Source: Acutalibacteraceae bacterium | GTDB lineage: Bacteria > Bacillota > Clostridia > Oscillospirales > Acutalibacteraceae | Assembly (NCBI GenBank): GCA_045592345.1 | Contig: JAZNUN010000083.1 | Span: forward strand, 7,987-71,986 | Direction of reading: 5' to 3' | DNA length: 64,000 bases | In this document: one piece after another, positions 1-37,392 of the stretch | How the letters are laid out: each line of letters begins with the position of its first letter | Numbering within the stretch: the first letter of the stretch is position 1 | The notes under the pieces: model-generated | Databases searched by the model: none | What the model was told of the DNA's origin: nothing | The model's input: only the letters and a program-made list of their open reading frames with translations | Translations under genes and position numbers: made by a program

Positions 1-572
1 GCCCCGTGGGATAGGATATAGGCTTTATCGTCGGTCTTCTCCACGTATTTCTGCAGCACCATCAGGAAGGTAGCGGCGTAAGAATCGGTGGAGTCGTAGG
101 ATTGTTTACCATCCAAGTAGAGGATCTCCTCTTTGACCACGGTGCCGTCTTCCACGGTAATGTTGTAGTCATAGATAGTGCCGTCCACCCCGTTATAGTC
201 GGTGTCGGCGGTATTGAGATGGGCAAAGTGCCAGTCCATATACGCCTTAACGTTGGCGGCATATTTGTCAGCCTGATTGAGCAGGGACAGCGCCGCAAAA
301 TCCGAAAAATAAGGGGTCACCTTGACCCTACCGTCGCTAATGGGGGTCATGGGCATAGCGCCGTTGGACAGCTGTATATCCGCCAGCCATTGGTTCTCGG
401 TATCCACGATGTTTTGGTATCGTGCCACTTCGCTCGCCTCCAATCGGACGGTAGGTTTGGTTGTGGTCGTAGTGGTTGTGGTGGCATCGCTACTGTTTCC
501 GTTGCCTGCGGCAGGGCCGCAGGAGGTCAGCAGCAGCACAGAGGCCAGACACACCGCCAGTGCGCGTTTCAT
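1..572 (-). CDS. Lipoprotein of unknown function; C-terminus runs off the left window edge (last visible gene of the uptake operon)
   Basis: Hand translation of the minus strand from ATG 572-570 is stop-free to position 1: MKRALAVCLASVLLLTSCGPAAGNGNSSDATTTTTTTTKPTVRLEASEV... It has a lipobox (LLTSC) and a Thr-rich linker. It is missing from the ORF track because it has no stop in the window. It starts 5 nt after the upstream permease stop. Confidence 0.75.
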   Translation of the reverse strand, partial: MKRALAVCLASVLLLTSCGPAAGNGNSSDATTTTTTTTKPTVRLEASEVARYQNIVDTENQWLADIQLSNGAMPMTPISDGRVKVTPYFSDFAALSLLNQADKYAANVKAYMDWHFAHLNTADTDYNGVDGTIYDYNITVEDGTVVKEEILYLDGKQSYDSTDSYAATFLMVLQKYVEKTDDKAYILSHG

Positions 573-577
573 AGCCA

Positions 578-1498
578 TCACCCCACGATACCGGTGCGCT
601 CGATACCCTCGGTAAAGTGCTTCTGCACCAGAATGTAGATGGCGGTGATGGGCAGCACCATGATCAGACAGGCAGCTGCCAAAATGGATCCCTTCAGCAG
701 TTTCAGGTCGGTGCTGATCGACTGACCGGTGAGGTACTGCAGACTGGTTTCCAGAGCGGCGCCTACCGAGGTGACCGCCACGGACAGGGGATAGTTGCCG
801 TTGAGCAGCATACCGATGGTAGAGGAATCGTTGTAATACCACACCAGCGACAGCACCGATACGGTGAGGATGGCAGGCTTGATATTGGGCACCATGATCC
901 GTATAAAGGTCTGGAAGGGGTTACATCCGTCGATAAAGGCGGCCTCCTCCAATTCTTTGGGCATAGTGCGGAAGAACTGTCGGATAATGAAGATGTACAG
1001 CGCAGAGCGGATGCCCACGCCCAACAGTGCTTGAATGTAGAACTGCCATACGGTGTTGACCAGTTTCAGTTTGCTCATCAGCACGTATACGGGGATGATG
1101 TAGCAGTCCGTAGGCACGATGATGTTGAACAGCAGGATGGCAAACAGAACCCCTAATCCGGGCACCTTGAATCGGGCAAAGCCGTAGGCGATAAACACGC
1201 AGGATACCACCTGTAGTGCCACGCAGGGCAATACGATGGTGATGGTGCTCTTCAGTGCCTCGCCGTATTTCATCAGTTCAAACGCCTTTTGGAAGTTGAA
1301 CCAGTTAAGCCCTGACGGGAGCCACACTACGGTGGCGTCCAGCGTGTCGGATACGGACATAAACGAGGACGAGATCATCAGCAGCATCGGGTATAGGGTC
1401 ACATAACCCACACCCAGCAGGAAGATGGTGCGGAGAAATCCGCCGCCTGCCTTATACAACCGTTTTTTTAGTAATACAGATCGTCTGGAACGGTCCAT
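578..1498 (-). CDS. Carbohydrate ABC transporter permease (MalG-like)
   Basis: 306-aa polytopic ORF with an EAA-type loop (ELEEAAFIDGCNPFQTFIRIMVPNIKPA). SD GGAGG lies upstream of ATG 1498. Confidence 0.9.
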   Translation of the reverse strand: MDRSRRSVLLKKRLYKAGGGFLRTIFLLGVGYVTLYPMLLMISSSFMSVSDTLDATVVWLPSGLNWFNFQKAFELMKYGEALKSTITIVLPCVALQVVSCVFIAYGFARFKVPGLGVLFAILLFNIIVPTDCYIIPVYVLMSKLKLVNTVWQFYIQALLGVGIRSALYIFIIRQFFRTMPKELEEAAFIDGCNPFQTFIRIMVPNIKPAILTVSVLSLVWYYNDSSTIGMLLNGNYPLSVAVTSVGAALETSLQYLTGQSISTDLKLLKGSILAAACLIMVLPITAIYILVQKHFTEGIERTGIVG

Positions 1499-1522
1499 GG
1501 GCCTTTCCTCCTTTCCGGATGT

Positions 1523-2425
1523 TTATTCAGCCGAGTAGAATGCAACACGGGACATAATCCAGCTGACCAGTCCCACCACTGCCAATACGCACACACAGTA
1601 GATAACACCCACCGTGGCGCTGTAGGAGTAGTTGTTGTTGGAATAGTAGTAGTTGATGGTGCGGATGATGACGTTGTCATAATCCGTAAAGCAATCGATG
1701 AGGGTATATATGATGACCACCACCAGAGTGGGGGACATGGTGGGCAGCGTGATCTTCCAGAATTTCTCCCAGCCGGTGGCACCCTCCATCATTGCCACCT
1801 CATAGAAGCTGGTGGGGATGCTGTTCAGGGCGGCCAGCAGTAGCAGAATCTGCACGCCGGACTTCCACATCAGGTCAAAGATCTCATTGATGATGGTGGT
1901 GATGCTCTCCAGCACCTTTGTCGGCACACCCAGATCGGCGAACACCAGGGTCAGATCGGGTGCCTGGAACATATAGGATGCGCCGGCCTCGGCAGCCGCC
2001 GTGGCACTGCCGCCCATCATCACCTGATCCTGCAGGATGCTGATAACAGGGCCGGAGGCGATGATAACAGGCAGGAAGAACACTGCACGGGCCAAGCCCC
2101 GCAGGGGGAACTCCTGCCGCAATAGCAGGGCGATCATGGTGCTGAAGGTGATGATCAGCAGGGTGCTAGGTATCGTCTCGATCATAGCGGTGGCCAGATC
2201 CTGCAGGAACAGAGCATCCTTAAAGAAATCCAGATAGTTGGCGGTGCCCACAAAGGTGGTCTCAAAGCCGCGTCCGCCCACCGTCAGTTTACTGAATGAG
2301 TAGATACCGGTTTGAATCATAGGCCACAGAAAGAAGATGGCGATGCCTACGATCCACGGGGCCAAAAAGACCCAACCCCAACGGGTGCGCTGTTTTTCCA
2401 GGGAGCGGAATCCTTGTTTTTTCAT
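1523..2425 (-). CDS. Sugar ABC transporter permease (MalF-like)
   Basis: 300-aa polytopic ORF with an EAA-type loop (YEVAMMEGATGWEKFWKITLPTMSP). SD AAAGGAGG lies upstream. Confidence 0.9.
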   Translation of the reverse strand: MKKQGFRSLEKQRTRWGWVFLAPWIVGIAIFFLWPMIQTGIYSFSKLTVGGRGFETTFVGTANYLDFFKDALFLQDLATAMIETIPSTLLIITFSTMIALLLRQEFPLRGLARAVFFLPVIIASGPVISILQDQVMMGGSATAAAEAGASYMFQAPDLTLVFADLGVPTKVLESITTIINEIFDLMWKSGVQILLLLAALNSIPTSFYEVAMMEGATGWEKFWKITLPTMSPTLVVVIIYTLIDCFTDYDNVIIRTINYYYSNNNYSYSATVGVIYCVCVLAVVGLVSWIMSRVAFYSAE

Positions 2426-2449
2426 GGAGTCGTCCTCCTTTCGTGTGGA

Positions 2450-4705
2450 TTAATAGCCGCCGGTGATATAATCGCTCGGCGATACGGTGATACCGTCCGC
2501 GGTGTACGGGGTGTCGGTATAGTTCACGATAGCCCAGGCGCCCCCCTCAAAATCGGTGCGGTAGACACCCTCGGCCAGTTGGGTATGGTTGGTGATAGCC
2601 TTGCCGCTGACCGCCGCCAAATAGGGGGCAATGGCGGTCTGCTGCTGGGCGGCCACGTCCAGCCAATCCGCGGCATTGATGTAGTTATACTGCTCGCCGG
2701 CGGTATTTTTCAGCCGGTCGGTGTTGCGCCATCCCAGCGTATAGGTCAGTCCGATACCGTTCTCCACCGCCTGCAATACGCGGATGTTACCCTCGGCGTC
2801 GTTGACGGGGGCCACGCTCATATCCACCAAACCGTGGAGGGCGATGGCATAGAAGGGTACGGCGCGCTCCTCGCACAGATAGCGGCTGTGCTCGGTGGGA
2901 ACACTCTGTACGGTAGAGGTATAGGGGAGTGCGTAAGCGTTAGCCGCGGTGAGTAGCAGACCGTCCTTACTCTGCGCGGCGACATCGGCGATGGTCTTCT
3001 CCCACAGTGCCTGAGCAGAGCCACGGTCAATAGGCTCGTCGCCGAAGTGGGAGTAGATCTCCTCGCCCATACTGCCCAGTGCCAGACCGCTCATACCGGC
3101 GGACTGCCACTTAGTATAGGCTTTGGTCCAGCGGCTGACCAGGTCGGTTAGCTTAGAGGGACTCAGCAGGAACACCTTATCCGCTTTGCCGTTGGCGCGG
3201 TAGGTGCTGATGTAGAAGTTCTGCCGCATCAGCGGCTCTTTTTTTACGTTCTGAGAGGTAGAATACAGGGTGGTATATCCCTTCTGATTCTGCATCAGAT
3301 CGGTAAAGTTCAGATTAAAATATACCTTGGTGCCGTCGGTCAGACCATCCAGCAGTTTTTTCAGTCCGGACTTACCGCCCAGGCGGCTCTCCGCCTTCAT
3401 ATCCGCGGTCAGACGGCTCTGGGTACCGAACTTATCCCAATAGAGATAGTCCAGGGACAGGCTCTGCACACCGCGGTCTTTCAGGGCGGCGATGAGGGAG
3501 AGGGTATCCTCATAGGAGGTAACGGGGAGCACTCGATTGACGGGAATACCCAGAATATTCTCTTCGTGCATCACGCCGCCCACCACCTGCACCTGCAGGG
3601 CAGAGGAGGAAGCGTCGGCGGTCATACCCTTTTCCTCCATCAGATACTGACGGTAGGTGTTGGCCATACCCACGTAGTCGGCGGTAGCCGGCATACGGTA
3701 TTCCACCGTGAATTTCTCCAGAGCGCAGTGCTCCGGCTCAAACATATTGGCCTGGGTGGAGTCAAAGGTCTGCTGGCTGATCTCCACCATCAGACGCTCA
3801 CGATAGATGAACTCTACGCCCACGGAGGTAAAGGGATTGCGGCTGTCCGGCATCAGGGCGGATACACGGGCGCGGGCGTCACCGGAGGTGATGATGCCCA
3901 GCACCGCCGCCTTGGTGTCGGTGACACCGAACACGGGCAACCGCGCGATCTGGGTGGGGGCGGAGCCGGTGGTCTTACCCACTGCGGCATCCTCGCCGTA
4001 GATGCGCTGGCTATAGTTGGATTGGCCGTAGGCGAAGGGGATGATAGCACCGCTGCCGTCGGGAACCAGCGCATAACCGCCGGTGCCTACCATACCTGCG
4101 CCGAAGTTGGGCAGGGGCAGGATCTCGGTCAGCTTACTGGATTTCGACGCCTCTTGAATATCCGCCAGCGGCACCGATGCGTTCAGGCCGTTGGGGGTCA
4201 GGGTCACCTCTAAGGGGATCAAAAAGCCCTCGTTGGCGAAATAGAAATCAAAGCGCACCCCGTTCTCGATTGCCTTGGCGGCAAAGTTCTTACGGGCCAC
4301 ACTACCGGTAGAACCGTACACCAAGGTGTTCAGTGAATCGCGGTTGGCGTAGCGGAAATTCAGCAGGGAGGACAGCTCCTGTCGCTCCTTGTTCTTGAGG
4401 TCGGTCATATCATCCATCCCCAAGGGGCGGCTGCTCACCACGGCGCCGTCGGCTTTACGCTCCAAACGGATTTCGGGGTCACACAGGTTGGCGTACAGAA
4501 TGTAGGTGTCGTTCTCCGCCATCTTCTGCAGTTGGTCTACGGTACCCACCTGTTGGGTAAAGGAGATCGGGGTCTTCTCTTCTTTTTGCACGGCATCCAG
4601 ATCCGCTGTATCTGAGGCGTGGGACAGCATCACCGCCACCAGAGCCACCGCCGCTAAACCGGCGCCGATACGAAGGGCGACAGGAAGCCATTTCAACTTT
4701 TTCAT
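2450..4705 (-). CDS. Membrane-anchored extracellular protein of unknown function (possibly DUF5696-like; candidate glycan-active protein)
   Basis: 751-aa ORF with SD AAGGAGG upstream and an N-terminal anchor helix (LPVALRIGAGLAAVALVAVML). I recognise no CAZyme motif. The DUF5696 idea comes from memory of similar loci and is unverified. Confidence 0.8.
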   Translation of the reverse strand: MKKLKWLPVALRIGAGLAAVALVAVMLSHASDTADLDAVQKEEKTPISFTQQVGTVDQLQKMAENDTYILYANLCDPEIRLERKADGAVVSSRPLGMDDMTDLKNKERQELSSLLNFRYANRDSLNTLVYGSTGSVARKNFAAKAIENGVRFDFYFANEGFLIPLEVTLTPNGLNASVPLADIQEASKSSKLTEILPLPNFGAGMVGTGGYALVPDGSGAIIPFAYGQSNYSQRIYGEDAAVGKTTGSAPTQIARLPVFGVTDTKAAVLGIITSGDARARVSALMPDSRNPFTSVGVEFIYRERLMVEISQQTFDSTQANMFEPEHCALEKFTVEYRMPATADYVGMANTYRQYLMEEKGMTADASSSALQVQVVGGVMHEENILGIPVNRVLPVTSYEDTLSLIAALKDRGVQSLSLDYLYWDKFGTQSRLTADMKAESRLGGKSGLKKLLDGLTDGTKVYFNLNFTDLMQNQKGYTTLYSTSQNVKKEPLMRQNFYISTYRANGKADKVFLLSPSKLTDLVSRWTKAYTKWQSAGMSGLALGSMGEEIYSHFGDEPIDRGSAQALWEKTIADVAAQSKDGLLLTAANAYALPYTSTVQSVPTEHSRYLCEERAVPFYAIALHGLVDMSVAPVNDAEGNIRVLQAVENGIGLTYTLGWRNTDRLKNTAGEQYNYINAADWLDVAAQQQTAIAPYLAAVSGKAITNHTQLAEGVYRTDFEGGAWAIVNYTDTPYTADGITVSPSDYITGGY

Positions 4706-4735
4706 ACCGATCCCCTCCTTTCATTATAAGGATAA

Positions 4736-6835
4736 TTAGTGTAGTCTGAATTCACTGTACAGGGTGCTGATAAAGGTCAGCAGTTGGGCGAACAGGCTGT
4801 AGCCGATGGTGATCAGCAACAACAGCAGATAAATGCCCAGCACCGAGCCGCCCAACAGCAACACGGTCTTGCCGGAGGTGTACTGGTGCACCTCACGGGT
4901 GGACATAAAGATGTGTATCGCGGTCCAAGCATAGGCCACCACCCACATCACACCGATAAAGGCGGCCTCTTCCAGGGCAAACATATGGGTCAGACCGGTG
5001 ATAACCAACGTGCAGATGGAATAGGGGATGAGGGCGTAGGAGGTAAAGACGAAGATCTCTTTCAGCTTACCCTCGCCGTCCGCCAGGGTGCTCACCGACC
5101 AGTTACACAGCACAAACAGCAGGAACAGTCCTAAGGTGGTACCTAAAGTGAGGAAAATATTGAAGTTTTCCTTTACACCGTTTATGAAATGGAAGGCGGT
5201 GAACTGCTCCTTTACCACACCGGAGAAGAAGAACAGGAATAGGCTGACACAGGCCAGCAGGATAGAACCCTTTTTCTCCACCTTCAGCTCATAATACGCC
5301 TTAAAGGGATGCATCAGGCAGTACAGGGGATACCGCCATTTGCTGACCTGGATGTTATACTCGTTTACCTGACGGCGCTCCGACCACTTGGTCAGCACCA
5401 CCGCGCCTAACAGAAGCAGTACCACGCCGCCCAGAATCCACGGGAAATTGGCGCGTACCGACTCGTCTCGCAACTCTGCGAAGCAGGCGGAGTAACTGGC
5501 CTTGTCGTTACCGATCTGGTAGTACCGCATAGCGGTCTCGCGGTCGCCCTCCGCCTCATAGGCGGCACCCAGACCCACGTTAGCCAGTTCGTAGTAGGTA
5601 TCGGTCTTCAGCACCTCCCGCCAGTAGGGACCGGCTTCGGTATACAGACCGTTGTTATACAGTACGGTGGCGGCACGGACGTTGCGGGCAAAGGCGGTGG
5701 GGGACATCACGGTGACAGAGCCGTTGTCCTGATCCAGCACCAGCAGATTGCCGTTGCAGGTCTCGATGGCTACGGGGGAGTTAAAGTTGCCGTAGCGGGT
5801 ACCGTTGCCGCCGAAGGCGTACAGCAGATTGGAGTTTTCGTCGTACTGGAGTAGACGCTTATAGGTGTGGTCCAGCACCGTGACGAAGCCGTCGTCCTCC
5901 GCCACCAGATCAATGAGCGCAGAGGTGACGGTGATATTGTTGGTGGAGTCAAACCAAGTGTCCAGATCGCCGAACTGAGCCAATTCCTTATTGGAGTTGA
6001 ACATAATGTTGGTACCCAGTGTATTCAGCTTACGCACCTGACCTACGCCGGCGTCGATCTCACTGCTTTTCAGGGTGAAGATGAAGTTTCCGGAATCGAT
6101 GTCCAGCCGCTTGATGGAGGTGGGCACGTTACGTTTCAGACCGGCGGTGGCCTCTTCGGATAGCAGTTTTTTCCACAATTCGTTAATCAGCACCTCAGCG
6201 GTGACAGTCACCTGCTCAGCGCCGAAATAGCCTAAGTACTCGTAGGTCTCGCTGTATTGGAGAGCACCGTTCTCCGAGCCGTCGGACACCACGTAGATGA
6301 TGCCGGCGGTATCCACCACCACGCTGATGGGGGTGTACTTAAAGGTTTCCTCCACCTTGTCGGCGGGGGGCGCCTGGATCTCGCCAAAGACAGCACCTTG
6401 GGCGTCGGCTACGTATACCACACCGCTGTCGTCAAAGGCTGATTTATCCGCAACATAGAGGTTGCCGTCGGCGGTGACGAACAGACCCTGTGCATCAGCG
6501 AATGCCAGGGGCTGACCGCCTTTGGTAAAGCGCACCTCACGGAGATAGACACCCTCTGCGTTCAGCACCGCCACGCGGTTGTTACCGGCATCCAGAATGT
6601 ATATCTCCTTGTTGTTCAGTACGAAAATATCGGTGGGATTTTTCAGTGCCGTACCGCCGTAGGTCTCGGCCCCTACCAGATAGTCGATGGCCGTGTATGG
6701 CTCGGATACGGACATGGCGTTATCCCAGGAATCGTACACATATGAGTTGGAGGTGCCCTCGGCGTACACCATCACGCCCGAGCCGATCAGAATCAAGCAC
6801 AGCAGCACGGACAGCAGTGTTTTCAGTTGTTTCAT
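4736..6835 (-). CDS. Signal peptide + NHL-type beta-propeller + TPR-like segment + C-terminal Yip1-type polytopic membrane domain
   Basis: Start placed at ATG 6835 (SD AAAGGAG about 9 nt upstream; signal MKQLKTLLSVLLCLILIGSGVMVYA); the longest ORF reaches 6880. NHL-like blades are present (IYILDAGNNRVAVL, LYVADK, IYVVSDG, VTVLDHTYKRLLQYD, LLVLDQDNGSVTVM). The last ~230 aa contain several hydrophobic helices. Confidence 0.8.
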   Translation of the reverse strand: MKQLKTLLSVLLCLILIGSGVMVYAEGTSNSYVYDSWDNAMSVSEPYTAIDYLVGAETYGGTALKNPTDIFVLNNKEIYILDAGNNRVAVLNAEGVYLREVRFTKGGQPLAFADAQGLFVTADGNLYVADKSAFDDSGVVYVADAQGAVFGEIQAPPADKVEETFKYTPISVVVDTAGIIYVVSDGSENGALQYSETYEYLGYFGAEQVTVTAEVLINELWKKLLSEEATAGLKRNVPTSIKRLDIDSGNFIFTLKSSEIDAGVGQVRKLNTLGTNIMFNSNKELAQFGDLDTWFDSTNNITVTSALIDLVAEDDGFVTVLDHTYKRLLQYDENSNLLYAFGGNGTRYGNFNSPVAIETCNGNLLVLDQDNGSVTVMSPTAFARNVRAATVLYNNGLYTEAGPYWREVLKTDTYYELANVGLGAAYEAEGDRETAMRYYQIGNDKASYSACFAELRDESVRANFPWILGGVVLLLLGAVVLTKWSERRQVNEYNIQVSKWRYPLYCLMHPFKAYYELKVEKKGSILLACVSLFLFFFSGVVKEQFTAFHFINGVKENFNIFLTLGTTLGLFLLFVLCNWSVSTLADGEGKLKEIFVFTSYALIPYSICTLVITGLTHMFALEEAAFIGVMWVVAYAWTAIHIFMSTREVHQYTSGKTVLLLGGSVLGIYLLLLLITIGYSLFAQLLTFISTLYSEFRLH

Positions 6836-6876
6836 TCCGATCCACTCCTTTCGGTATAGTTGTTTCATAGGAATTA

Positions 6877-7758
6877 TCAATCCTTCATACCGGAGGTGGA
6901 CATGGTCTCCACCACCTGATTCTGACAGCAGATAAACAGCACCAGCGGGGGAATCATCAGGATCAGACCCATGACGGAGCCCACACCGGAGCGGGCAGTA
7001 CCGCCGGCCACCACCTGAGACAGCAACGAGGAGATCATCTTGATCTTATCGTCGTAGATCAGGGTGGTGCTGATGGTGGCACCGCTGGAGTTCCACACTG
7101 TCTGGAAGGCAAAGATCATCACCGTCAGCCAGGCGGGCTTGATGTTGGGCATCACGATCTTGGAGTAGATGTTGAATTCGTTGGCACCGTCGATACGGGC
7201 GGCCTCCAGCATAGCCTCGGGCACCTGCATCATAAAGTTCTGCATCAGGTACAGACCTAACGCAGACTGTGCCTGGGGCAGGATAAACGCCCAGTAGGTG
7301 TCGATGATATGGATTTTGGACATAACGATATACTGGGGGATCAGCATCAGCGCCGTGGTGAACAGCAGGGACAGACGCACCACGCTGCTGATGATGCCAC
7401 GGCCGGTGAAATTCAGCCGCGCCAGCGGGTACGCCGCCAGGCTGGACAGCAACAGATGACCGAAGGTGACCACCGAGCAGATAAACACCGTGTTAAATAC
7501 GTATCGGGAGAAGGGAATCCAGAAATCCTCCAACAACAGACTGATCTGCAGGAAGTTTTCCAGGGTAGGACTGTGCGGGAAGAAGTGAGGCGGGAATACA
7601 TAAATTTCACTGATGGGCTTAAATGCGGTGCTGGTGGTATATACGATGGGCAACAGCATAAACGCCGACATCAGCGCCACCAGAATAAAGATAACGATGT
7701 TACCGCCCAAAGAACGGTTCAGTTTTTTGGCTTTGACCCGCAGTTTGACGTCACTCAT
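6877..7758 (-). CDS. Carbohydrate ABC transporter permease (MalG-like)
   Basis: 293-aa polytopic ORF with an EAA loop (MLEAARIDGANEFNIYSKIVMPNIKPA) and SD AAAGGAGGAGG upstream. Confidence 0.9.
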   Translation of the reverse strand: MSDVKLRVKAKKLNRSLGGNIVIFILVALMSAFMLLPIVYTTSTAFKPISEIYVFPPHFFPHSPTLENFLQISLLLEDFWIPFSRYVFNTVFICSVVTFGHLLLSSLAAYPLARLNFTGRGIISSVVRLSLLFTTALMLIPQYIVMSKIHIIDTYWAFILPQAQSALGLYLMQNFMMQVPEAMLEAARIDGANEFNIYSKIVMPNIKPAWLTVMIFAFQTVWNSSGATISTTLIYDDKIKMISSLLSQVVAGGTARSGVGSVMGLILMIPPLVLFICCQNQVVETMSTSGMKD

Positions 7759-7834
7759 TCCAAACCTCCTCCTTTCATATAGAATAGCGTTAATTTATAG
7801 GTTTGCGCCCCGATGGGGCGGTATCCGCCGCCCA

Positions 7835-8755
7835 TCAGCCTGCGCTGAAACGACGGAGCAGATGGGTGATGATGAAGTTGACAAACACCATCATCAGGAA
7901 CAGGAAGGTGGCGATGGCAGAGGCATAGCCCATCTCAAAGCGCACCGTACCCACGTCCAGCATATAGGTCAGCAGGGTATCCGCCGCATAGTTGGTGGTG
8001 GGGAAACCTGCCAGAGCCTGCACGATCTGACCCACAGAGAAACAGGCACCGATCTGCTGCACCGCACTGAATATCAGCTGGGGAGCCATAGAGGGCAGGG
8101 TGATATACCACAGCTCCTGCCAGCGGTTATGAACACCGTCGATGGCGCCGGCCTCGGACAGGCTGCGGTCCATATTCTGGAATCCGGCGATAAACGCCAA
8201 GAAGCTGACACCGAAGCTGGACCACAACTGGATGATGATCAGACACCCCATCATCGTCTTGGGGTCGCTCAGCCACTGCACCGGCGCATCCTCCAGACCC
8301 AGATTCAGCAGAATACTGTTCAGAATACCGTAACGGTCACCGGAGAACACGTAGGTCCAGGTGAAGTACAGGTTACCGGTCAGGGTGGGGGAATAGAACG
8401 CCAGCGTGAAGAAAGAACGGATGGCGGGGGGGAACTCGTTGATCAGCCACGCGCTGAGGAACGAGATACAATAGCTGACGGGACCGGTGATCAGAGCGAA
8501 CAGCAGGGTGTTTTTCAGCACCTTGGGAAAGACGTCGTCATCCAGGAACATCCGCGCATAGTTTTCCAAGCCGATAAACTTGGGTGCCTCCAGCATATTG
8601 AAGTAGGTAAAACTCAAGGCGATGGCGGTGATCACGGGGATGACCGTCAGGATGAGGAACAGGATCATATAGGGGGCCATCATGGCATAGGCAGTCTTAT
8701 TGATCGCCACTTGGGATGCCATCAATCGGCGGGGACGCCGTTGGATATTGGCCAT
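7835..8755 (-). CDS. Sugar ABC transporter permease (MalF-like)
   Basis: 306-aa polytopic ORF with an EAA loop (LSEAGAIDGVHNRWQELWYITLPSMAP) and SD AAAGGAG upstream. Confidence 0.9.
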   Translation of the reverse strand: MANIQRRPRRLMASQVAINKTAYAMMAPYMILFLILTVIPVITAIALSFTYFNMLEAPKFIGLENYARMFLDDDVFPKVLKNTLLFALITGPVSYCISFLSAWLINEFPPAIRSFFTLAFYSPTLTGNLYFTWTYVFSGDRYGILNSILLNLGLEDAPVQWLSDPKTMMGCLIIIQLWSSFGVSFLAFIAGFQNMDRSLSEAGAIDGVHNRWQELWYITLPSMAPQLIFSAVQQIGACFSVGQIVQALAGFPTTNYAADTLLTYMLDVGTVRFEMGYASAIATFLFLMMVFVNFIITHLLRRFSAG

Positions 8756-8781
8756 TATTCCTCACTCCTTTCTATGATTTC

Positions 8782-11676
8782 TCATTGTAATTCAAGCAGT
8801 TTGCGTTTGATCTCACTGTCAATGATCTTGACCTGCTTTTCAAACACCTTGCGGGGATTATCGCCGTCGTAGATGACGCTGCGGAAAGCGTTGTCCAAAC
8901 AACGGGAGGTGTAATAGCTTCCGGGGATCTCGGGGATCTCCTGCACCCATTCACGCTGGGCGCGGAGCACTGCTTTTTCCTGGCTGCTCCAGTTCAGCAG
9001 TTCTACTGCCGCCAGGTTGGCGGTGGCATAGCGGGCGGCCTCGCCCAACTGGTTTTCCAGACGGTTACCGTAGTCCGCTTGGGTGTCGGCCCGGGTGAAC
9101 CACTCTAAGAACCGCCAGCAGGATTCGGGGTCCTTAGCGTCGCGCAGGATCACCGCCGCGGAGCCGGAGGCACCGGCGCTGCGGTCGATGGAGCCATCCT
9201 CCTGCATCGTGCCGGGCAGGGTGGTCATTTCCCAACAGCCGCGGATCTCGGTGGCTACAGCCGCCAGAGTGCCGTACATGGGATAGGCGGTAATGCACAA
9301 GGGCATCTCACCGCTACGGAACAGGGTGGCAAAATCGTAGCTTAGGTCAAAACCGTAGTCGGTATAGAAACTGACCCAGGTTTCAAAAGCCTCCAACGCC
9401 TGTTGGCTGTTCAGGGCGGTGGCATCCAAGCCGTCGTTGTAGAAACTGCCCTTATTCTGTAACAGCAGGGAGGGATACAGGTCCTTGGCACCCACACCCA
9501 CCTCCACAGCGCCGGTGGCGGTGATGGCGGTATAGGGCAGACCCACCTTCATATTGTTACGTTGCAACACAGCGGCAACGTCCATAAAATCGTCCCAGGT
9601 TTGGGGGATCTCCAGACCCAGCTCCTTAAAAATATCGGTGCGGTAGAACATGGTCTGATAGGTCTGGGTCATGGGCAGGGCGTACACGCCCCCGTTGTAG
9701 GAATAGGGGACCAGCGCATCGTCGGTGAAGCGCTCCGCCACCGAGGAAAGTTCGGTGAAGCGGGTCAGGTCCATCAAGGCGCCACGGGATGCCAGGTTAA
9801 CGGGCTGTCCGCGGGCCACGTTGATAGCCACGTCGGGGGCGGTGCCCGCCAGAGTGGCCTCGATCAGACCGCCCTGCACCAGATTCACGTTGACCGCAAT
9901 GCCGGTCTCGGAGGTGAAGGTGTCGGCAATCATATCCTTCATAATGGTGGCTTGGTCGCGGCCGTCGCTGATCCAGACGGTGATCACTTTCTGCTCGCCG
10001 TCGGCGCTGAACTCCTCCAGAGAGGCATAATCCTTGGAGAAGGTGGCTAGGAACTGACGCAGTTTAAACATCAGATTCTTCCACCAGTTGCCGCGGGCGG
10101 AGGGAATCTTCGCATCGGCGGCGTGGACCACAAAATAATCCAGTTCCAGGGGCTGCTCCTTGTTGTTCAGCAGCCAGTCGGTCAGGGCGGTGATCTTCTC
10201 GCGGAAGGTGGCCAGTTCGTCCTCAATCTTCGCAGGTTTATCAGCAAAGATATACATCTGATCCGCTACGGTACGCAGTACCGCCGACTGCTGGGACACA
10301 CCGCCGTTGATGCGCTCGAACTCGTCGGCGCAGGCATTGGTGCGGTTGGCCAGATCGGCAAGAATATCGGTTAGGCCGCGAATCTCACCGGTGAGGAAGT
10401 AATCGCGGTAGGGGTCGGGGGAAGTACCGGTCACCATAATGATGCGGCGGTACAGATCGTTCATCTCCATGGCCAGAGCATCCACGTCCAGCAGGATGGG
10501 GGCCCAGGCACCGGTGGTGGTCTCCAGACGGATGGTGTTCTTGCCCTGTTTCAACTTGACATATAGGGGACTGCCGTCGGCGTTTTGCAGGGTCACGTTG
10601 TTCCATCGGAACGCAAAGGGGAATCCTACGTTTTTCAGTTCGGCATAGGGGATCTCGCCGTTTATGTAGATATCACGATATACCGTCATATCCATAGAGA
10701 TGTTCTGACGGTATTTAAATGTCAAACAATACAGACCGTCGGCGGGCACATCCACCTCGTATTCGATCCATTCGCCCGCTGCCTTCCAGTTGGTGCCGCC
10801 GATGACGTTACGCTTGGTGAGTCCGGGGGTGTTGGGTTCGGCGTTGGCAGTTTCGGTGGCGGCATTACCCAGATCATAGGTGGGATAGATGGTGCGATCG
10901 GATTTCAGCGCCGTGGTCTCGGCGGCGTATTTCAGATACACTGCGGCATCTGCGGGGGTCAGACCCTCCGCCTGCCAGCCTGCCAGCACGTTGGCATAGC
11001 TGTCCGGCTGCCGGGTGATACCCAGCGTCACCTCTGCCAGATACAGGGGATAGTCCCCTGCTGTCAGACGGATGACGTGGGTGCCGGCGGTCAGCACGAT
11101 TTGATAGTTGTTATTGGTATATCCGGTGGTATCGTTGAGGGGGGCGGTCTGCCAGGCAGATACCTCTACCTGCTCCGGTACCAGATCGTTACCCTTGGAA
11201 TCCTGCTGGATGGCGGTGGCATCCTTCCACAGCCGCTTCAGTTCCAAACCTGCGGCTTCGCGGAAGGGATAGGCACCGTCCACCGTCAGCATCAGCTCCA
11301 GCGTCTGGCCGATACCCTGTTCGGCCGCGTATTGGGGCACCACGATATAGGTGGCGTCGGCGGGCACGGTGACCGTCCACTCGGCATAGCCGCCGGAGGC
11401 CAGACGGATGGCCGCCTTATCCAGATAGGTGAGTTTTTGGGCATTCTCCGCAGAGATTGCGGCGCTATCCGCATTCAGCAGGATGGGGGTGGTGGCCTGT
11501 GCCGCGGTGACCGATTTTTGGTACTCATAGTACGAGGGGAGGGACAACGTATCCACGGAGGTGGCGGGGGCCAAATCCGTTGCCGTTTCGGCGGTGACCG
11601 CCGCAGGAATGCAGGTGCACAGCAACGCCGCCGCTAAGGACAGCGATAACAATTTCCGTTTACAGATACGCATCAT
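8782..11676 (-). CDS. Very large extracellular solute-binding protein: signal peptide + two CBM-like beta-sandwich modules + family-1 SBP domain
   Basis: Start placed at ATG 11676 (SD AAGGAG 5 nt upstream, inside the araC 3' end); the track start at 11682 is a GTG with no spacing to the SD. Two related modules are present (GGYAEWTVTVPADATYIVV... and AGEWIEYEVDVPADGLYCLTF...KQGKNTIRLE). The C-terminal ~430 aa look like an SBP (ITVWISDGRDQATIMKDMIADTFTSETGIAVNVNLVQGG...). Confidence 0.85.
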   Translation of the reverse strand: MMRICKRKLLSLSLAAALLCTCIPAAVTAETATDLAPATSVDTLSLPSYYEYQKSVTAAQATTPILLNADSAAISAENAQKLTYLDKAAIRLASGGYAEWTVTVPADATYIVVPQYAAEQGIGQTLELMLTVDGAYPFREAAGLELKRLWKDATAIQQDSKGNDLVPEQVEVSAWQTAPLNDTTGYTNNNYQIVLTAGTHVIRLTAGDYPLYLAEVTLGITRQPDSYANVLAGWQAEGLTPADAAVYLKYAAETTALKSDRTIYPTYDLGNAATETANAEPNTPGLTKRNVIGGTNWKAAGEWIEYEVDVPADGLYCLTFKYRQNISMDMTVYRDIYINGEIPYAELKNVGFPFAFRWNNVTLQNADGSPLYVKLKQGKNTIRLETTTGAWAPILLDVDALAMEMNDLYRRIIMVTGTSPDPYRDYFLTGEIRGLTDILADLANRTNACADEFERINGGVSQQSAVLRTVADQMYIFADKPAKIEDELATFREKITALTDWLLNNKEQPLELDYFVVHAADAKIPSARGNWWKNLMFKLRQFLATFSKDYASLEEFSADGEQKVITVWISDGRDQATIMKDMIADTFTSETGIAVNVNLVQGGLIEATLAGTAPDVAINVARGQPVNLASRGALMDLTRFTELSSVAERFTDDALVPYSYNGGVYALPMTQTYQTMFYRTDIFKELGLEIPQTWDDFMDVAAVLQRNNMKVGLPYTAITATGAVEVGVGAKDLYPSLLLQNKGSFYNDGLDATALNSQQALEAFETWVSFYTDYGFDLSYDFATLFRSGEMPLCITAYPMYGTLAAVATEIRGCWEMTTLPGTMQEDGSIDRSAGASGSAAVILRDAKDPESCWRFLEWFTRADTQADYGNRLENQLGEAARYATANLAAVELLNWSSQEKAVLRAQREWVQEIPEIPGSYYTSRCLDNAFRSVIYDGDNPRKVFEKQVKIIDSEIKRKLLELQ

Positions 11677-11678
11677 TC

Positions 11679-12644
11679 TCACTCCTTTATCTCAGGTTCG
11701 GTATCGCATTCTTCCAATCCCTCAGGCATAATGGGTCCGTTGGGAGCCTTCCCCTCGGCCTTTTGGCGCAGGAACGCGGTGGGAGAGCATCCCATAGTGC
11801 GTTTGAATGCCTTGCTGAAGGATTGTACGGTGGCGTATTGCAGGCGGTTGGACACCTGCACCACAGACAGCTTGCCGCAGCACATCAGTTCAATGGCCTT
11901 TTGGATCTTTCGGTTACTGATATACCGGCGGATGGTGATGCCGTTACAGCGGCAGAAGGCATCCGACAGGTAGGAATAGTTATAGCCGATCTCTTGGGCC
12001 AATTTTTGCACGTTGATGTTCTCGAAGATATGCTTATCAATGTATTTGGCCACGGCGTACATAGACTGACTGACGTTTTTCTCCGACACGGGCGGGAAAT
12101 ACTCCCGCCTGGGCTGGGCGTTGAAGCAACGGTACACCAGCACCAGCATCTGCAGCAGATAGGACTCCACCATCACGTTGTGGAACTCCTCGTGGCCGTA
12201 CATTTCGTCCAGGTTGCGGAACAGCGGCACCACCAGATTGTGGGCGTCCGCTACCTTGTAATAAGCTAACTGCTCGTAGTAATCCTTGAGCTTTTTCAGT
12301 TCCTCGTTCTCATCGGCCTTTTCGTTGAAGGAAAAGCCGATGTAGGCGTAACGCAGATCCGATCCGTTAGCGGTACGGATGGCGTGGGTCTTGCCGGCGG
12401 GGCAGAAATGAATATCCCCTTCCACCAGCAGATCGGTCTCATTATCGGTGGTGAAGTATCCCTCGCCGCTGATAACGTAACTGATCTCGTGACACCACTG
12501 GGTGTGTGAGGGAATATCGTACCCCCGCACGCAGGACAGGTCACCTGCCTGATACAGATCAATGGCACCGAGACGGCGGACCTCGCCGCTCTCCTTGCCA
12601 TGGTACAGCATATCAAATTGGAATCGTTTTCCGTTGGTGGGCAC
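11679..12644 (-). CDS. AraC family transcriptional regulator (cupin sensor + dual HTH)
   Basis: GTG start with SD AAGGAGGTGA. The C-terminal region QKLAQEIGYNYSYLSDAFCRCNGITIRRYISNRKIQKAIELM...SNRLQYATVQSFSKAFKRTMGCSPTAF is an AraC-type HTH pair. Confidence 0.9.
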   Translation of the reverse strand: MPTNGKRFQFDMLYHGKESGEVRRLGAIDLYQAGDLSCVRGYDIPSHTQWCHEISYVISGEGYFTTDNETDLLVEGDIHFCPAGKTHAIRTANGSDLRYAYIGFSFNEKADENEELKKLKDYYEQLAYYKVADAHNLVVPLFRNLDEMYGHEEFHNVMVESYLLQMLVLVYRCFNAQPRREYFPPVSEKNVSQSMYAVAKYIDKHIFENINVQKLAQEIGYNYSYLSDAFCRCNGITIRRYISNRKIQKAIELMCCGKLSVVQVSNRLQYATVQSFSKAFKRTMGCSPTAFLRQKAEGKAPNGPIMPEGLEECDTEPEIKE

Positions 12645-12726: not shown

Positions 12727-13887
12727 TTAGCCCTGCTTCTTGCGAATCAGGATGAAGGCTGCGGCCACACCGGCCAGCACCACAACACCGCCGCCGATGA
12801 TCCAGGGCAGTGCATTGCCCTTCTTGACGGGGTCGGCGGCAGTGCCGTTGGAAGCATTATCGTTGCCGTCCACGGCACCGTCGGCGTTGGTGGGATCGGT
12901 GATCACCTCACCGTTCTCGTTGGTGGCGGTGGTGGTGGGATCGGTGATCACCTCGCCGTTCTCGTTGGTAGCGGTGGTGGTGGGGTTGGTGATTACCTCG
13001 CCCTGAGCATTGGTGGCGGTGGTGGTATTCTTACCACCTGCCTGGGTGGTGGTGTTCTTGCCACCGGCTTGGGTGGTGGTGTTCTTGCCGCCAGCGGTGG
13101 TGTTCTTGCCGCCGGCGGTGGTGTTATTGTTGCCGGTGGTGGTCTTGGTGGCGTCGCGCTCGGCATTGATCTCGTCCCAGGTTTGGGTCAGCTTCTTGCC
13201 GGCAGGGATCTCGGTTACGGGCACATTGGAACCCATAATGATCTTCACAGAGTCCACGGCGATGTTCCACGGCACGTCGCCCTGCGCGTTACAGGGGTTG
13301 AACTGGATCTTCAGATACTTGTAGCCGGCGGGGATGACATCCGCGTTGGTCACGGTGGACATAAACCAGTAGGCCTTATCCCACTTCAGGTAGATGTTGG
13401 GGTCAAACTCATAATAGGTGGCCTGGGTCTCTACCTGTGCCCAGCTGTTTGCGGCACCGGTCTTGGAGATAAAGACGGAGATATCTTCGCGGGGGTCGCC
13501 GATACCGGCGCAGCACTGGGTCAGCAGCTCAAAGCCACCAATGTTTTTCGTCATTTTGTAGGTGATATACTCGGTGTGGTTGGGATTGCGGTCGTTATCC
13601 TGCTTGAGCAGCAGGGTGTTCTCCAGTTCCATATTGTACTCATAGCAGATCCGGTGTCCTTCGGTACCCTCGTCAGTGGAGCCGAAGGTGGAGAAATCCA
13701 CGATCTCACCGTTCTTTTCCATTTTGACCTTTTCTTCGACTTGTTTCTTGATATCCGCTTCGGTACCCACCAGCCCCTTGATCTCCAGAGTGGGGTCGGT
13801 CCACTCGCCGGTGACGGCGGCGGAGGCGGGGGCAACAACGGTCAGCATCATAGCGATAGCAAGTAATAGGGTAAACCATTTTTTCAT
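12727..13887 (-). CDS. Surface protein: signal peptide, unrecognised head module, Thr/Gly/Asn tandem repeats, C-terminal TM anchor
   Basis: Start placed at ATG 13887 (SD AAGGAGG; signal MKKWFTLLLAIAMMLTVVAPASA). The C-terminus is LPWIIGGGVVVLAGVAAAFILIRKKQG. The head module is paralogous to that of 30952-32448. Confidence 0.85.
   Translation of the reverse strand: MKKWFTLLLAIAMMLTVVAPASAAVTGEWTDPTLEIKGLVGTEADIKKQVEEKVKMEKNGEIVDFSTFGSTDEGTEGHRICYEYNMELENTLLLKQDNDRNPNHTEYITYKMTKNIGGFELLTQCCAGIGDPREDISVFISKTGAANSWAQVETQATYYEFDPNIYLKWDKAYWFMSTVTNADVIPAGYKYLKIQFNPCNAQGDVPWNIAVDSVKIIMGSNVPVTEIPAGKKLTQTWDEINAERDATKTTTGNNNTTAGGKNTTAGGKNTTTQAGGKNTTTQAGGKNTTTATNAQGEVITNPTTTATNENGEVITDPTTTATNENGEVITDPTNADGAVDGNDNASNGTAADPVKKGNALPWIIGGGVVVLAGVAAAFILIRKKQG
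12893..13143 (-). repeat. In-frame coding tandem repeats: 45 bp x3 (TTTATNENGEVITDP), then 27/27/21/21/21 bp units (GGKNTT[TQA])
   Basis: Read directly: GGATCGGTGATCACCTC(A/G)CCGTTCTCGTTGGT(G/A)GCGGTGGTGGTG recurs with a 45-nt period from 12893. GTTCTTGCC(A/G)CC...GGTGGT units follow to about 13143. Confidence 0.9.
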
Positions 13888-14149
13888 AGTGATTTCCTCC
13901 TTGATTTGGGTGGCGGACAGGCCAACCACCAATACTACAGATACATTATACTATAGGTATGGTAGTTTTTGCAAGGTCTATCATTTGGTTGGTTGTTATC
14001 CCAATTTTGTATTCTTATTTAAAACCGACAACTTTTTTGGCTTCTTGCACCAATTTTTACGCAAAAAGTGGGATTTTTATATGGATTTATAGCCAATTTG
14101 CCGGGGGGACGACCCGATTTTGGAACAAGCCGCGGGCGTCACCATATTT

Positions 14150-14194
14150 CGACAAAAAAGAAACCCGCCCGACGGTTTCCGTCGTCGGGCGGGC
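14150..14194 (-). terminator. Rho-independent terminator of the 14207-17551 gene
   Basis: The stem CCCGCCCGACG/CGTCGGGCGGG is followed on the minus strand by TTTCTTTTTTG. Confidence 0.8.
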
Positions 14195-17200: not shown

Positions 17201-17551
17201 GACGTAGTCGTAGCGACCGTCGTCATCCTCTACGTCCACGTAATAGGTACCCTTGGCGGTGACGGTCATCATACCGCCGCCGATGAGCACCTCGGCATCG
17301 CTTTGATACCAGTAGACGGTATTACCGGGGACGGTAACGCCCTCTGCATCAATATCAGCGCCGCTCAGGAAGACGGAGATATCGCTCAGTTTAATATCCT
17401 GATCAACGTTGACGAATAGGTTGCGGTTGTCCTCGGTAATGGTGAAGTATTCGCCATCTGCCACAGCATGCAGAGCCGTGGTAGCAATAGCGGATACACA
17501 CATAGCCAGGCAACAAACCAGTGCCAGAATTTTTTTAGCTGTGTTTTTCAC
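14207..17551 (-). CDS. Giant surface metallophosphoesterase: signal peptide, calcineurin-like phosphoesterase, Ig/FN3-like region, LamG/ConA-like lectin domain, distant copy of the head module, NGG low-complexity, C-terminal TM anchor
   Basis: Phosphoesterase motifs are present (IGVMSDIHLQ, FTGDLVNTG, ITGNHEF, LAGHSHF), as is a LamG-like segment (YYAVLTFDGNKLVLYLDGAKVGE). The C-terminus is VTVAAILMLVSAAVAFVTSKKRIDN. GTG 17551 is preferred (SD GAAAGGTG upstream); the longest ORF reaches 17602. Confidence 0.85.
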   Translation of the reverse strand: MKNTAKKILALVCCLAMCVSAIATTALHAVADGEYFTITEDNRNLFVNVDQDIKLSDISVFLSGADIDAEGVTVPGNTVYWYQSDAEVLIGGGMMTVTAKGTYYVDVEDDDGRYDYVTIVAKNADEDTFELDGESIPAASLPSNPDNYVPTELDPALAVYQSQKIGVMSDIHLQVGATAGDYALKAALTELKAQGVSAVLFTGDLVNTGIAEEYAKFNAIWNEVMGGTDIKMLTITGNHEFEGVYFRNEKYDDLLQTYLNAFGKTQANFHEVVNGIHIIGLNSENHIVDGTYTLKTMSYLEEQLAEAAAADPYAPIIVMCHQTLANTTYGSEWGSSGTGSLYDVLRYYPQVVYLAGHSHFDFTNEKSIMQKNFTCIDVPSMQYTAAEDGNGGSSAACYDYQNYLILDINGTSKTMEVKRMKSYETESATHAYESVQVKDSWVLNLPITKKNFTYTADRAEDRVAPTFAAGAAVTVDNVTYNSATVKFPAASHDDYVHAYNVTVTDTAGEVLVSKYIVSDFYKLEGKQTEYTVELDGLFCNTKCVVNVTAVESFGKVSEAIIGEFTTAPITDPSAALNRADFMDVNIAAGFADNSPYRRQFNLYVKSHPIKLLVDGELGRQVASMNGWVNYATSLGSLKEITDALSIEVAFKTPANFDPQPKEDGTPGEKEGQTIFGNRENGGFALEFNKDDAFQASVFINGEEKIISAGALKANTWYYAVLTFDGNKLVLYLDGAKVGELEAPGAITYDNTISHITIGGDVSKNGTGARAYAGSVALARIYTKVMDEAAMKAAYSAYKNDNAYNYLYQKYLALQELDTTGMKAEDVAAIEALIAEAEELLNSADLTVAAANACSQKAYDLLQALASYNKQNALILFEDKFDDFTKVWESSAYNGLQWENNTEIKKTLISKQNNEDVYSLIYKLPANVKRIELDALGITVYDKFYINEDIVFFVSKDGKNWTEVKYTATEPTVDALSAYWANSTLSADVSGEYTYVKVQINKFGTAIAETGEVVDRVNWTTVMDGLRIWHEDAGVPAINNGGDNGGNNGGNNGGGNNGGGNNANPEGGTKPGIGDDKPGNTDKLGEDMTPVTVAAILMLVSAAVAFVTSKKRIDN

Positions 17552-17879
17552 GCTGTTCACACCTTTCTGAATAGTGTACATAATCCTATGCGATGGTTTC
17601 ACACGGCATTATTACATTTCAATTATATAGCAAAGACGCATAATTGAAAAGGTCGCATTTTTGGATACGTGTTACCTCAAATTTGGGTTTTTCGTCAAAT
17701 ATGCATTAATCGTAGAAAAAATAGAAATATTTTCGTTAAAAATGACGAATAAAAAATGACAATTTCCAATTTCACCCAAAAGCAGGACCACCTCCGCAAA
17801 GGAATATGAACCGTTGGTTTCCGGAACAAAAAACAGGTAATTCCCCTTATGCCTGTGCGTTGTTTTCAGAAAACCACCC

Positions 17880-17907
17880 TTGACAATCTGAAAAACAATG
17901 CTATAAT
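17880..17907 (+). promoter_or_regulatory. SigA-type promoter for greA-lysS
   Basis: TTGACA (17880-85), a 16-nt spacer, then TGcTATAAT (extended -10; TATAAT at 17902-07). Confidence 0.7.
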
Positions 17908-17973
17908 GTATTAGTTATGTTATAAGGGTATATGCGCCCTAAAAACAAATACTCCGAAAGGTGAGTGACAAGA

Positions 17974-18444: not shown

Positions 18445-18471
18445 GACGACCCCTGAAAGGAAGTGCCCTCT

Positions 18472-24384: not shown

Positions 24385-24420
24385 ATAACCGTCCCCGCTT
24401 GTCGGGGGCGGTTATTTTAT
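24385..24420 (+). terminator. Rho-independent terminator
   Basis: ATAACCGTCCCCGCTTGTCGGGGGCGGTTATTTTAT. Confidence 0.8.
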
Positions 24421-24520
24421 GTCTGTTTGTTTGCTTGTGTCCTTGACGGGAAAGGGGAGCATAGTGTATACTTTATGTCATAGAGGATGTTTATTGCGTT
24501 TCGAGAGGAAGATGTCTGTT

Positions 24521-37357: not shown

Positions 37358-37392
37358 AAAAGACGGAAAACTATTCCAAAGGAGTGAGGATA

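Follow-up and report, generated by a model that had tools for sequence, protein, structure and literature searches.

We analysed a window of 64 kb, the whole stretch taken from contig JAZNUN010000083.1 of an Acutalibacteraceae bacterium, and found at its left end nine genes on the minus strand that on balance probably make up most of a Gram-positive operon for polysaccharide utilisation, with an eight-gene core that would capture a glycan, trim it and import the products. Judging from the comparison of related genomes, this core is an ancient module. It comprises a giant solute-binding protein (SBP), a first pair of ATP-binding cassette (ABC) permeases, an NHL protein, a Yip1 protein, a DUF5696 protein and a second permease pair. 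In the window the NHL and Yip1 proteins are fused.

Conservation of the core in Firmicutes

A genome scan with the pattern GYx[LFV][VI]PDGSG detected a relative in at least 580 species genomes. We kept 80 loci, sampled from Oscillospiraceae, Ruminococcus, Paenibacillus, Cohnella, Mahella and Lachnospiraceae, and searched their open reading frames (ORFs) with the window proteins. The giant SBP, two permeases, NHL and Yip1 were located upstream of DUF5696 in 62 of the 63 testable loci, the lone exception being an artefact of the script, and a second permease pair followed DUF5696 in 70 of 72. The two pairs were not interchangeable in position. With one exception among about 300 permease ORFs, the upstream permeases had their best match in pair 1 of the window, and the downstream permeases matched pair 2 best almost without exception. 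Positional orthologues of the MalF-type and MalG-type subunits were present in 71 and 73 loci, respectively, for pair 1 and in 78 and 75 loci for pair 2. The original prediction had asked whether the gene neighbourhood is conserved, and the co-conservation found here is much stronger than it had guessed. The family itself is large: the DUF5696 profile matched 4,035 clusters at 50% identity (E <= 1e-30) among 1.84 billion representatives.

The locus might be regarded as an accidental neighbourhood in which two ordinary sugar ABC operons stand beside genes for unrelated membrane proteins and no functional unit exists. Sugar ABC operons do abound in Clostridia and Paenibacillus, where they are frequently next to one another. 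However, the same eight components, in the same order and on the same strand, recur in these loci across families and classes of Bacillota, their positional orthology is strict, and the gaps between the window genes are only 2-76 nt. We consider chance extremely improbable, and the neighbourhood analysis, as a comparison of gene order, refutes it.

The genes that follow the core vary. Among them were members of the glycoside hydrolase (GH) families GH32 (two or three copies), GH30, GH95, GH26, GH2 and GH38, as well as GH42-like/DUF4832, Melibiase_C, DUF5060, DUF4838 and GDPD genes. Since one and the same core is found with GH families that act on fructans, mannans, fucosides, galactosides and further substrates, it is probably generic, with the substrate probably set by the accessory genes. 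The regulators that flank the module are of different types among the loci. An AraC-type gene is upstream of the giant SBP in only 17 of 62 related loci, and AraC is therefore placed outside the conserved core. A second SBP is likewise variable. A gene of the same family as the second SBP of this organism (see below) came directly after pair 2 in 24 of 68 loci, and a downstream stretch of at least 6 kb held an SBP-like ORF of any kind in 36 of 64 (about 30 of them strong matches on the same strand); Ruminococcus-type loci and many Paenibacillus loci had no second SBP.

One unusual arrangement was seen in the seven closest genome loci (L001-L007), in which two extra genes of 354 and 525 aa split pair 2 between its MalF-type and MalG-type members. 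In L004 they occupy 13091-14155 and 14214-15791, and they have no Pfam match.

Organization of the operon

Pfam and NCBIfam models were used to assign the window proteins to families. The features of the operon and of its 5' flank are as follows, all on the minus strand.

1..572 (-), lipoprotein, first 190 codons of 398 aa, cut by the window edge; lipobox LTSC
578..1498 (-), permease pair 2, MalG/UgpE-type, 306 aa; BPD_transp_1 2.2e-13, MalG 1.9e-16
1523..2425 (-), permease pair 2, MalF/UgpA-type, 300 aa; BPD_transp_1 5.6e-6 (just at the cutoff), UgpA 1.8e-15
2450..4705 (-), DUF5696 protein, 751 aa; PF18952 2.5e-150
4736..6835 (-), NHL-Yip1 fusion, 699 aa from the ATG at 6835; Yip1 8.4e-12, NHL 1.4e-8
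6877..7758 (-), permease pair 1, MalG/UgpE-type, 293 aa; BPD_transp_1 1.2e-10, UgpE 1.8e-22
7835..8755 (-), permease pair 1, MalF/UgpA-type, 306 aa; BPD_transp_1 4.7e-12, weak GlcT and UgpA matches
8782..11676 (-), giant SBP, 964 aa; assigned by AlphaFold2 model and Foldseek
11679..12644 (-), AraC-family regulator, 321 aa, with an N-terminal cupin/AraC_binding sensor domain and a C-terminal HTH_18; HTH_18 6.9e-16, Cupin_2 1.6e-7, AraC_binding 4.4e-7
12727..13887 (-), surface protein, 386 aa, possible first gene of the transcription unit; AAGGAGG before the ATG at 13887
13974-13945 (-), promoter-like site, TTGCAA, 18-nt spacer and TATAAT, 10 of 12 matches in a consensus scan; 5' of the surface-protein gene

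The nine ORFs from the lipoprotein to AraC stand at the positions first given for them. The original prediction had described them as same-strand genes with gaps of 2-76 nt and a 2-nt junction between araC and the SBP gene, and had recognised the AraC regulator, the MalF/MalG-like permeases and the NHL-Yip1 fusion. The coordinates and our scan for Shine-Dalgarno (SD) sequences agree with the former, and the Pfam and NCBIfam models with the latter. In order from position 1, the gaps are 5, 24, 24, 30, 41, 76, 26 and 2 nt. The last is the distance from the araC stop to the giant-SBP ATG at 11676, whose AAGGAG lies within araC. A GGAGG-type SD had been claimed for every gene. This holds for eight of the nine, in which AAAGGAGG or AAAGGAGT (AAGGAG-type) is placed 6-9 nt before the start codon; the lipoprotein gene has only a weak SD, GGGGTGA.

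To the left, the operon continues past the window. Three metagenomic contigs carry a DUF5696 gene 97% identical to ours with the same neighbours, and in this near-identical neighbourhood the MalG-type permease of pair 2 is followed by the 398-aa lipoprotein, a 439-aa SBP_bac_1 protein and a 427-aa DUF4434 protein (E 1.2e-39). The gene after that is on the opposite strand. The predicted operon is about 16-17 kb long and extends about 3.9 kb past the left window edge. The original prediction had counted one SBP for two permease pairs; since a second SBP, the 439-aa protein, and the DUF4434 gene come just past position 1, this count was an edge effect in this organism.

We searched for relatives of the two accessory proteins at this end. 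The DUF4434 protein had no evident signal peptide in its N-terminal sequence and no match among Protein Data Bank (PDB) sequences, and the literature searched held one unrelated paper on DUF4434. The lipoprotein had no match in Pfam, NCBIfam or PDB sequences. Its sequence is rich in helices and aromatic residues and had raised the suspicion of an (alpha/alpha)6 enzyme, which nothing supported. Neither protein had a counterpart in the 80 related loci, and the lipoprotein is, by this distribution, a lineage-specific accessory gene outside the conserved core.

At the 5' side, a strong terminator of the preceding gene (14194-14163) is followed by the promoter-like site and then by the surface-protein gene at 12727-13887, and between this gene and araC there is just a hairpin without a T-run. 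The same neighbour is found 5' of araC in the near-identical contigs. With the promoter-like site and the surface-protein gene ahead of it, araC may not be the first gene, and the surface-protein gene may belong to the operon. The protein had no Pfam match. Besides its signal peptide and a membrane anchor at the C-terminus, it has a globular domain of about 230 aa and a linker made of Thr-rich tandem repeats with the units GGKNTTTQA and TTTATNENGEVITDP. Apparent homologues in two of the closest loci (L001 and L003; E ~1e-6 to 1e-7) were rejected, for the matches cover only the linker and the anchor and are of low complexity.

The giant solute-binding protein

The AlphaFold2 model of the giant SBP, built from a 30-sequence alignment, had a predicted local distance difference test (pLDDT) score of 86.3 and a predicted template modelling (pTM) score of 0.81. 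It comprises a signal/anchor helix (2-20), two beta-sandwiches resembling carbohydrate-binding modules (CBMs) of the CBM6/35 kind (65-219 and 247-387), a four-helix bundle (389-547) and an SBP fold (564-963). The two beta-sandwich modules that had been proposed for this protein can thus be seen in the model. In the Foldseek search only the SBP part found matches, all to SBPs that bind oligosaccharides (E 1e-17 to 1e-19; template modelling (TM) scores 0.68-0.79), and the similarity to PDB sequences was weak (5ysb, 2.1e-16) and restricted to residues 562-870. The C-terminal 400 residues share their fold with the binding proteins for sophoro-oligosaccharides (5ysb-5ysf), cycloisomaltooligosaccharides (9xf5) and manno-oligosaccharides (CpMnBP1, 4r9f). 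However, the giant SBP has about 550 additional N-terminal residues, the two sandwiches and the helical bundle, which are absent from these solved proteins.

In homologues, the N-terminal half matched CBM_35 in 9 of 30 sequences, CBM_6 in 4 and Golvesin_C in 14. Its best-conserved part is an invariant motif in the helical bundle, P420-D421..R424-D425-Y426 (T..PD..RDY, residues 416-428), and this motif could be a docking site for a partner.

The DUF5696 protein and its relation to GH129 and GH101

The 751-aa protein matched DUF5696 (PF18952) with 502.4 bits against a cutoff of 25.6, over profile positions 5-612 of 612. In its AlphaFold2 model (37-sequence alignment; pLDDT 89.8, pTM 0.89), helix 6-31 is an N-terminal membrane anchor, and in the body that follows a (beta/alpha)8 barrel is flanked by two beta-sandwiches, one on its N-terminal and one on its C-terminal side. 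When this model was compared with the PDB by Foldseek, ZgGH129 (8rzk/5opq) ranked at the top with E 5e-30 and NagBb (5wzn) had 2e-26, with TM scores of 0.67-0.73 on the target and alignments of about 725-770 columns. GH101 structures came after GH129 (1e-17 to 1e-19), and then GH36 and GH31. The three-domain architecture is the same as that of GH129, which includes its founder, the alpha-N-acetylgalactosaminidase NagBb of Bifidobacterium bifidum, and the 3,6-anhydro-D-galactosidase ZgGH129/DagB of Zobellia, and that of GH101. Unlike these enzymes, the DUF5696 protein has an N-terminal membrane anchor and its gene lies between two ABC permease pairs.

Profile comparisons agreed with the fold. 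The single sequence found no match among PDB sequences, and the DUF5696 family profile matched the NagBb chain (E 1.7e-6). The hhalign comparison with a NagBb-like sequence gave a probability of 97.8% and E 7e-13 over columns 340-747. This NagBb-like sequence was rebuilt from a frameshifted metagenomic contig; it is 84% identical over a 141-aa NagBb fragment, and D435 and E478 of NagBb fall on its AYLDVF and SSEEV motifs. The gene (L081, 470-2400) carries several frameshifts on a contig of 1.7x coverage, which are probably assembly errors and not the mark of a pseudogene. A search of a large protein database with the 141-aa fragment returned nine short fragments only and no full-length GH129. 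The rebuilt sequence scored 57.8 bits on PF18952 (threshold 25.6) versus 30.5 on PF11308 (Glyco_hydro_129) and 37.6 on Glyco_hydro_101. Because it scores higher on PF18952 than on PF11308, the Pfam boundaries of these two families overlap, as far as these profiles tell.

Taken together, the Foldseek ranking, the family profile, the hhalign result and the PF18952 score indicate that DUF5696 is a distant sister of GH129 and GH101, on the strength of profiles and a predicted fold, and that the relationship is remote and not one of family membership. Identity to these enzymes is only 13-15%. At E <= 0.01 the window protein matched PF18952 only, and neither PF11308 nor PF12905. GH129 membership is not established, because the protein falls below the GH129 and GH101 Pfam models, D435 and E478 do not align to acids, and the catalytic half has no glycosidase match among PDB sequences. 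The original prediction had seen no recognisable hydrolase in the operon, which was mistaken insofar as this protein is GH129/GH101-like (Foldseek 5e-30; 57.8 bits on PF18952). It had also said that a confident match of the 751-aa protein to a characterised GH family would speak against it, and this is nearly what was found: the fold matches, and neither family membership nor the alignment of the catalytic pair goes with it. Its suggestion that the extracytoplasmic proteins represent new families was not borne out, for DUF5696, NHL and Yip1 are existing Pfam families, uncharacterised in this context.

Permeases, ATPase and the NHL-Yip1 protein

All four permeases keep an EAA-type coupling loop (EAA-x3-G: EEAAFIDG, YEVAMMEG, LEAARIDG and SEAGAIDG), and their best NCBIfam matches were UgpA/GlcT/MalF and UgpE/MalG/GlcU. 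The two pairs have diverged: the MalF-type subunits of pair 2 and pair 1 are 31% identical over 64 residues, and the MalG-type subunits are 28% identical. With MalF- and MalG-type subunits carrying EAA loops and a binding protein of the SBP_bac_1/8 type, the locus has the parts of a type I sugar ABC importer of the carbohydrate uptake transporter 1 type, and the reading as carbohydrate import in the original prediction is borne out.

The lack of a nucleotide-binding subunit had also been pointed out, and our searches agree. No ORF of the 64-kb window contains Walker A and LSGGQ together, and in the 10-kb flanks of the related loci ORFs with the ABC ATPase motifs were found in 3 of 80, none of them adjacent. 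Sugar importers of the MalFG type often have no ATPase in cis and share one of the MsmK/MsmX type.

The NHL-Yip1 protein has a signal/anchor, an NHL beta-propeller, TPR-like helices and a multi-pass Yip1 membrane domain at about 522-689, numbered on the 714-aa ORF from the upstream TTG at 6880. The ATG at 6835 is preceded by the SD AAAGGAGT, and the gene is called as 699 aa in the near-identical contigs. Its NHL and TPR parts found matches among PDB sequences, including PknD. In 57 loci NHL and Yip1 are encoded by two neighbouring genes, in 20 by a single fused gene, and in all related loci the Yip1 gene lies between the permease pairs.

Proposed mechanism and alternative explanations

We propose that the giant SBP uses its pair of CBM6/35-like modules to catch a glycan, either a polymer or a long oligomer, at the cell surface and passes fragments to its own C-terminal oligosaccharide-binding domain. 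The DUF5696 protein, tethered to the membrane and extracellular, would bind the glycan and probably trim it beside the transporters; its fold comes from the model and its activity is a prediction. Two MalFG-type permease dimers would then import the products. Going by gene order, pair 1 is probably served by the giant SBP and, in this organism, pair 2 by the 439-aa SBP beyond the window. Both dimers may be energised by a shared MsmK/MsmX-type ATPase encoded elsewhere, as the known biology of sugar importers suggests. The NHL-TPR-Yip1 protein could be a membrane scaffold or accessory subunit that ties the extracellular parts to the permeases, by analogy with YknW. The lineage-specific downstream enzymes, here the lipoprotein and the DUF4434 protein, would set the substrate, and the AraC-type regulator may sense a product through its cupin domain.

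Several points weigh against this scheme. The nucleophile of NagBb, D435, aligns by hhalign to A542 (S, N or A in the family), and its acid/base, E478, falls in an insertion beside A588/N589 of the ANAY motif, where no acid is conserved. The nearest conserved acid to the D435-equivalent position is D553, 11 residues downstream in the YSDF motif after strand 4. It is the best-conserved acid of the barrel. The window protein and its clade have His at this position, and for this reason the window protein may be inactive or may use different chemistry. Another conserved acid, E648, is situated at the end of helix 641-649, before strand 652-658, and thus in the model probably on the non-catalytic face of the barrel. 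When the catalytic half alone was searched as a profile, no glycosidase came up among PDB sequences, only one weak, chance-level match to an unrelated protein (E 0.49), and the catalytic residues are therefore placed by hhalign only. Outside the DUF5696 protein, a second SBP is missing from about half of the related loci, and the scheme does not explain how pair 2 is supplied with substrate there. The roles given to NHL and Yip1 are drawn purely by analogy, and the assembly, expression and substrate of the module are predicted from genes and models only.

The catalytic residues bear on an alternative that we consider rather unlikely, in which DUF5696 is a non-catalytic pseudo-glycosidase, that is, a tethered module for glycan binding or reception that retains the GH129 fold and sugar pocket in order to concentrate or present the substrate, and the downstream enzymes do all the cleavage. 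It would account for the GH129 nucleophile and acid/base not being aligned to acids and for the His at position 553 in the window clade. The conserved residues that follow the predicted barrel strands are Y420/W423, Y551-S552-D553, N589/Y591/Y595 and N635. Those of the pocket are mostly aromatic and amide (Y, W, N), which is typical of binding sites, and the downstream GHs already supply catalytic capacity. However, the family retains acids. D216, in the VPDGSG loop of the N-domain, is present in 120 of 120 close relatives and 138 of 143 diverse representatives (E648 shows the same counts), D239 in 108/120 and 126/143, and D553 in 92/120 and 122/143, or about 85% of the family. Moreover, the nucleophile alone is common to NagBb (D435) and ZgGH129 (D486), at the end of barrel strand 4; the acid/base E478 of NagBb is not conserved in ZgGH129, and an N-terminal residue, Asp202, is essential in ZgGH129 (PMC5698469). 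Because even NagBb and ZgGH129 have just one catalytic residue in common, the non-alignment of the catalytic pair is, by this analogy, weak evidence against activity. A Glu at position 549 in 16 of the 22 sequences of the H553 clade also argues against loss of function. We did not count the co-variation of E549 and H553 as evidence for a migrated catalytic residue, since it is seen in one clade only.

Another possibility is that the core is a sensing or signalling device, in which the giant SBP, pair 1 and NHL/Yip1 detect an extracellular polymer and signal to, or gate, the transporter formed by pair 2 and the ordinary SBP, much as happens in transporter-coupled sensing. Such a device would fit two non-redundant permease pairs with strict positional orthology, a giant SBP whose best-conserved N-terminal motif is in the helical bundle and not in the CBM-like modules, and regulators of differing types beside the module; NHL propellers do occur as extracellular sensor domains, for example in PknD. 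We nevertheless regard it as very unlikely. The EAA coupling loops are kept in all four permeases, as in working transporters, the loci without a second SBP imply that pair 2 cannot be the only real transporter there, and the conserved core contains no kinase or signalling domain.

The capture-trim-import scheme can be taken further. The eight-gene core might be a single physical machine, a Gram-positive counterpart of the Sus-like surface complex, with two importer channels on a Yip1/NHL scaffold fed by the giant SBP. DUF5696 would then found a new GH family with a catalysis unlike that of GH129, perhaps involving Asp216, and the machine would be indifferent to substrate and retargeted through the downstream enzymes. 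We offer this extended picture as a doubtful one.

Other features of the window

Outside the operon, an ORF at 32568-34595 (+) encodes a 675-aa protein in which a cohesin (45-147) and a type I dockerin (178-232) precede an SBP_bac_8/SBP_bac_1 domain (277-599). Such a protein would be a binding protein of an ABC transporter that docks onto a cellulosome-type scaffold and extends it. Further dockerin proteins are among those encoded at 30952-32448 (+), 37384-38961 (+) and 24419-26974 (+), one 498 aa long and another carrying BspA-type LRR_5 repeats, and an 851-aa beta-helix, pectate-lyase-like protein with LRR_5 is also encoded at these three loci. The cohesin and dockerin proteins suggest that the host is one of the Clostridia that use cohesins and dockerins.

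Upstream of the operon, the ORF at 14207-17602 (-) encodes a surface protein of 1131 aa. Residues 181-376 form a calcineurin-like metallophosphoesterase domain and residues 688-804 a Laminin_G_3/ConA-like domain; the protein also has a C-terminal globular domain, a linker rich in Gly and Asn, and a membrane anchor. A strong terminator comes after the gene, which is also the neighbour in the near-identical contigs. The intergenic region at 17000-18000 is AT-rich (GC 0.46 versus about 0.56 elsewhere). It contains a perfect TTGACA-16-TATAAT promoter with an extended TG (17880-17907, +), and the gene that follows this promoter encodes a class II aminoacyl-tRNA synthetase (18463-20040).

Relation to known systems and significance

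Gram-positive polysaccharide-utilisation loci (PULs; gpPULs) bring together a regulator, glycoside hydrolases and a sugar ABC importer that depends on an orphan ATPase of the MsmK/MsmX type. Like them, this locus has a regulator, SBPs and MalF/MalG-type permeases with no ATPase in cis, and in related loci GHs lie downstream. With AraC, two transporters and the GH129-like DUF5696 protein in the window and the DUF4434 protein beyond it, it is a Gram-positive PUL in the broad sense, with catalysis here a prediction; this kind of system is already known, and no established principle has so far been contradicted. However, it differs from gpPULs in having two permease pairs in a fixed order, an SBP of about 960 aa and an obligatory NHL/Yip1/DUF5696 trio, and in that the same core is joined to many different GH families.

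The nearest parallel for the Yip1 domain is YknW, a Yip1-family membrane protein that is an accessory subunit of the Bacillus YknWXYZ ABC transporter (PMC4887032). YknW is encoded together with its transporter; the Yip1 domain of the window protein is encoded between ABC permease genes, and an interaction with the permeases is predicted by analogy only. However, YknWXYZ is an exporter of the MacB type that includes a membrane-fusion protein, and the permeases here are of the type I importer kind; Yip1 is also linked, by fusion or adjacency, to a large NHL propeller ectodomain, unlike in YknW.

The original prediction knew of no functional description for the NHL/Yip1 proteins together with the 751-aa protein, and none was found. 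In the literature searched, no paper mentions DUF5696, and searches for the module (DUF5696; Yip1 with NHL, SBP and GH; CBM35 with SBP and Ruminococcus) returned no description of it. The fixed dual-permease core, the SBP of about 960 aa with CBM-like modules and helical bundle, and the obligatory trio thus appear to be undescribed in that literature.

In the sampled genomes, DUF5696 almost always occurs in this same module, in fibre degraders of the gut, the rumen and soil (Ruminococcus flavefaciens, Oscillospiraceae, Lachnospiraceae and Paenibacillus). If the core serves many substrates as a front end that captures and imports polysaccharides, it would account for the uptake of large oligosaccharides by many Gram-positive fibre degraders, and it would probably add a new GH family related to GH129 and GH101. 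It would also give bacterial NHL/Yip1 pairs beside importers their first function and improve the prediction of PULs in Firmicute genomes and metagenomes. The GH32-linked versions in Paenibacillus make the idea of a generic front end directly testable.

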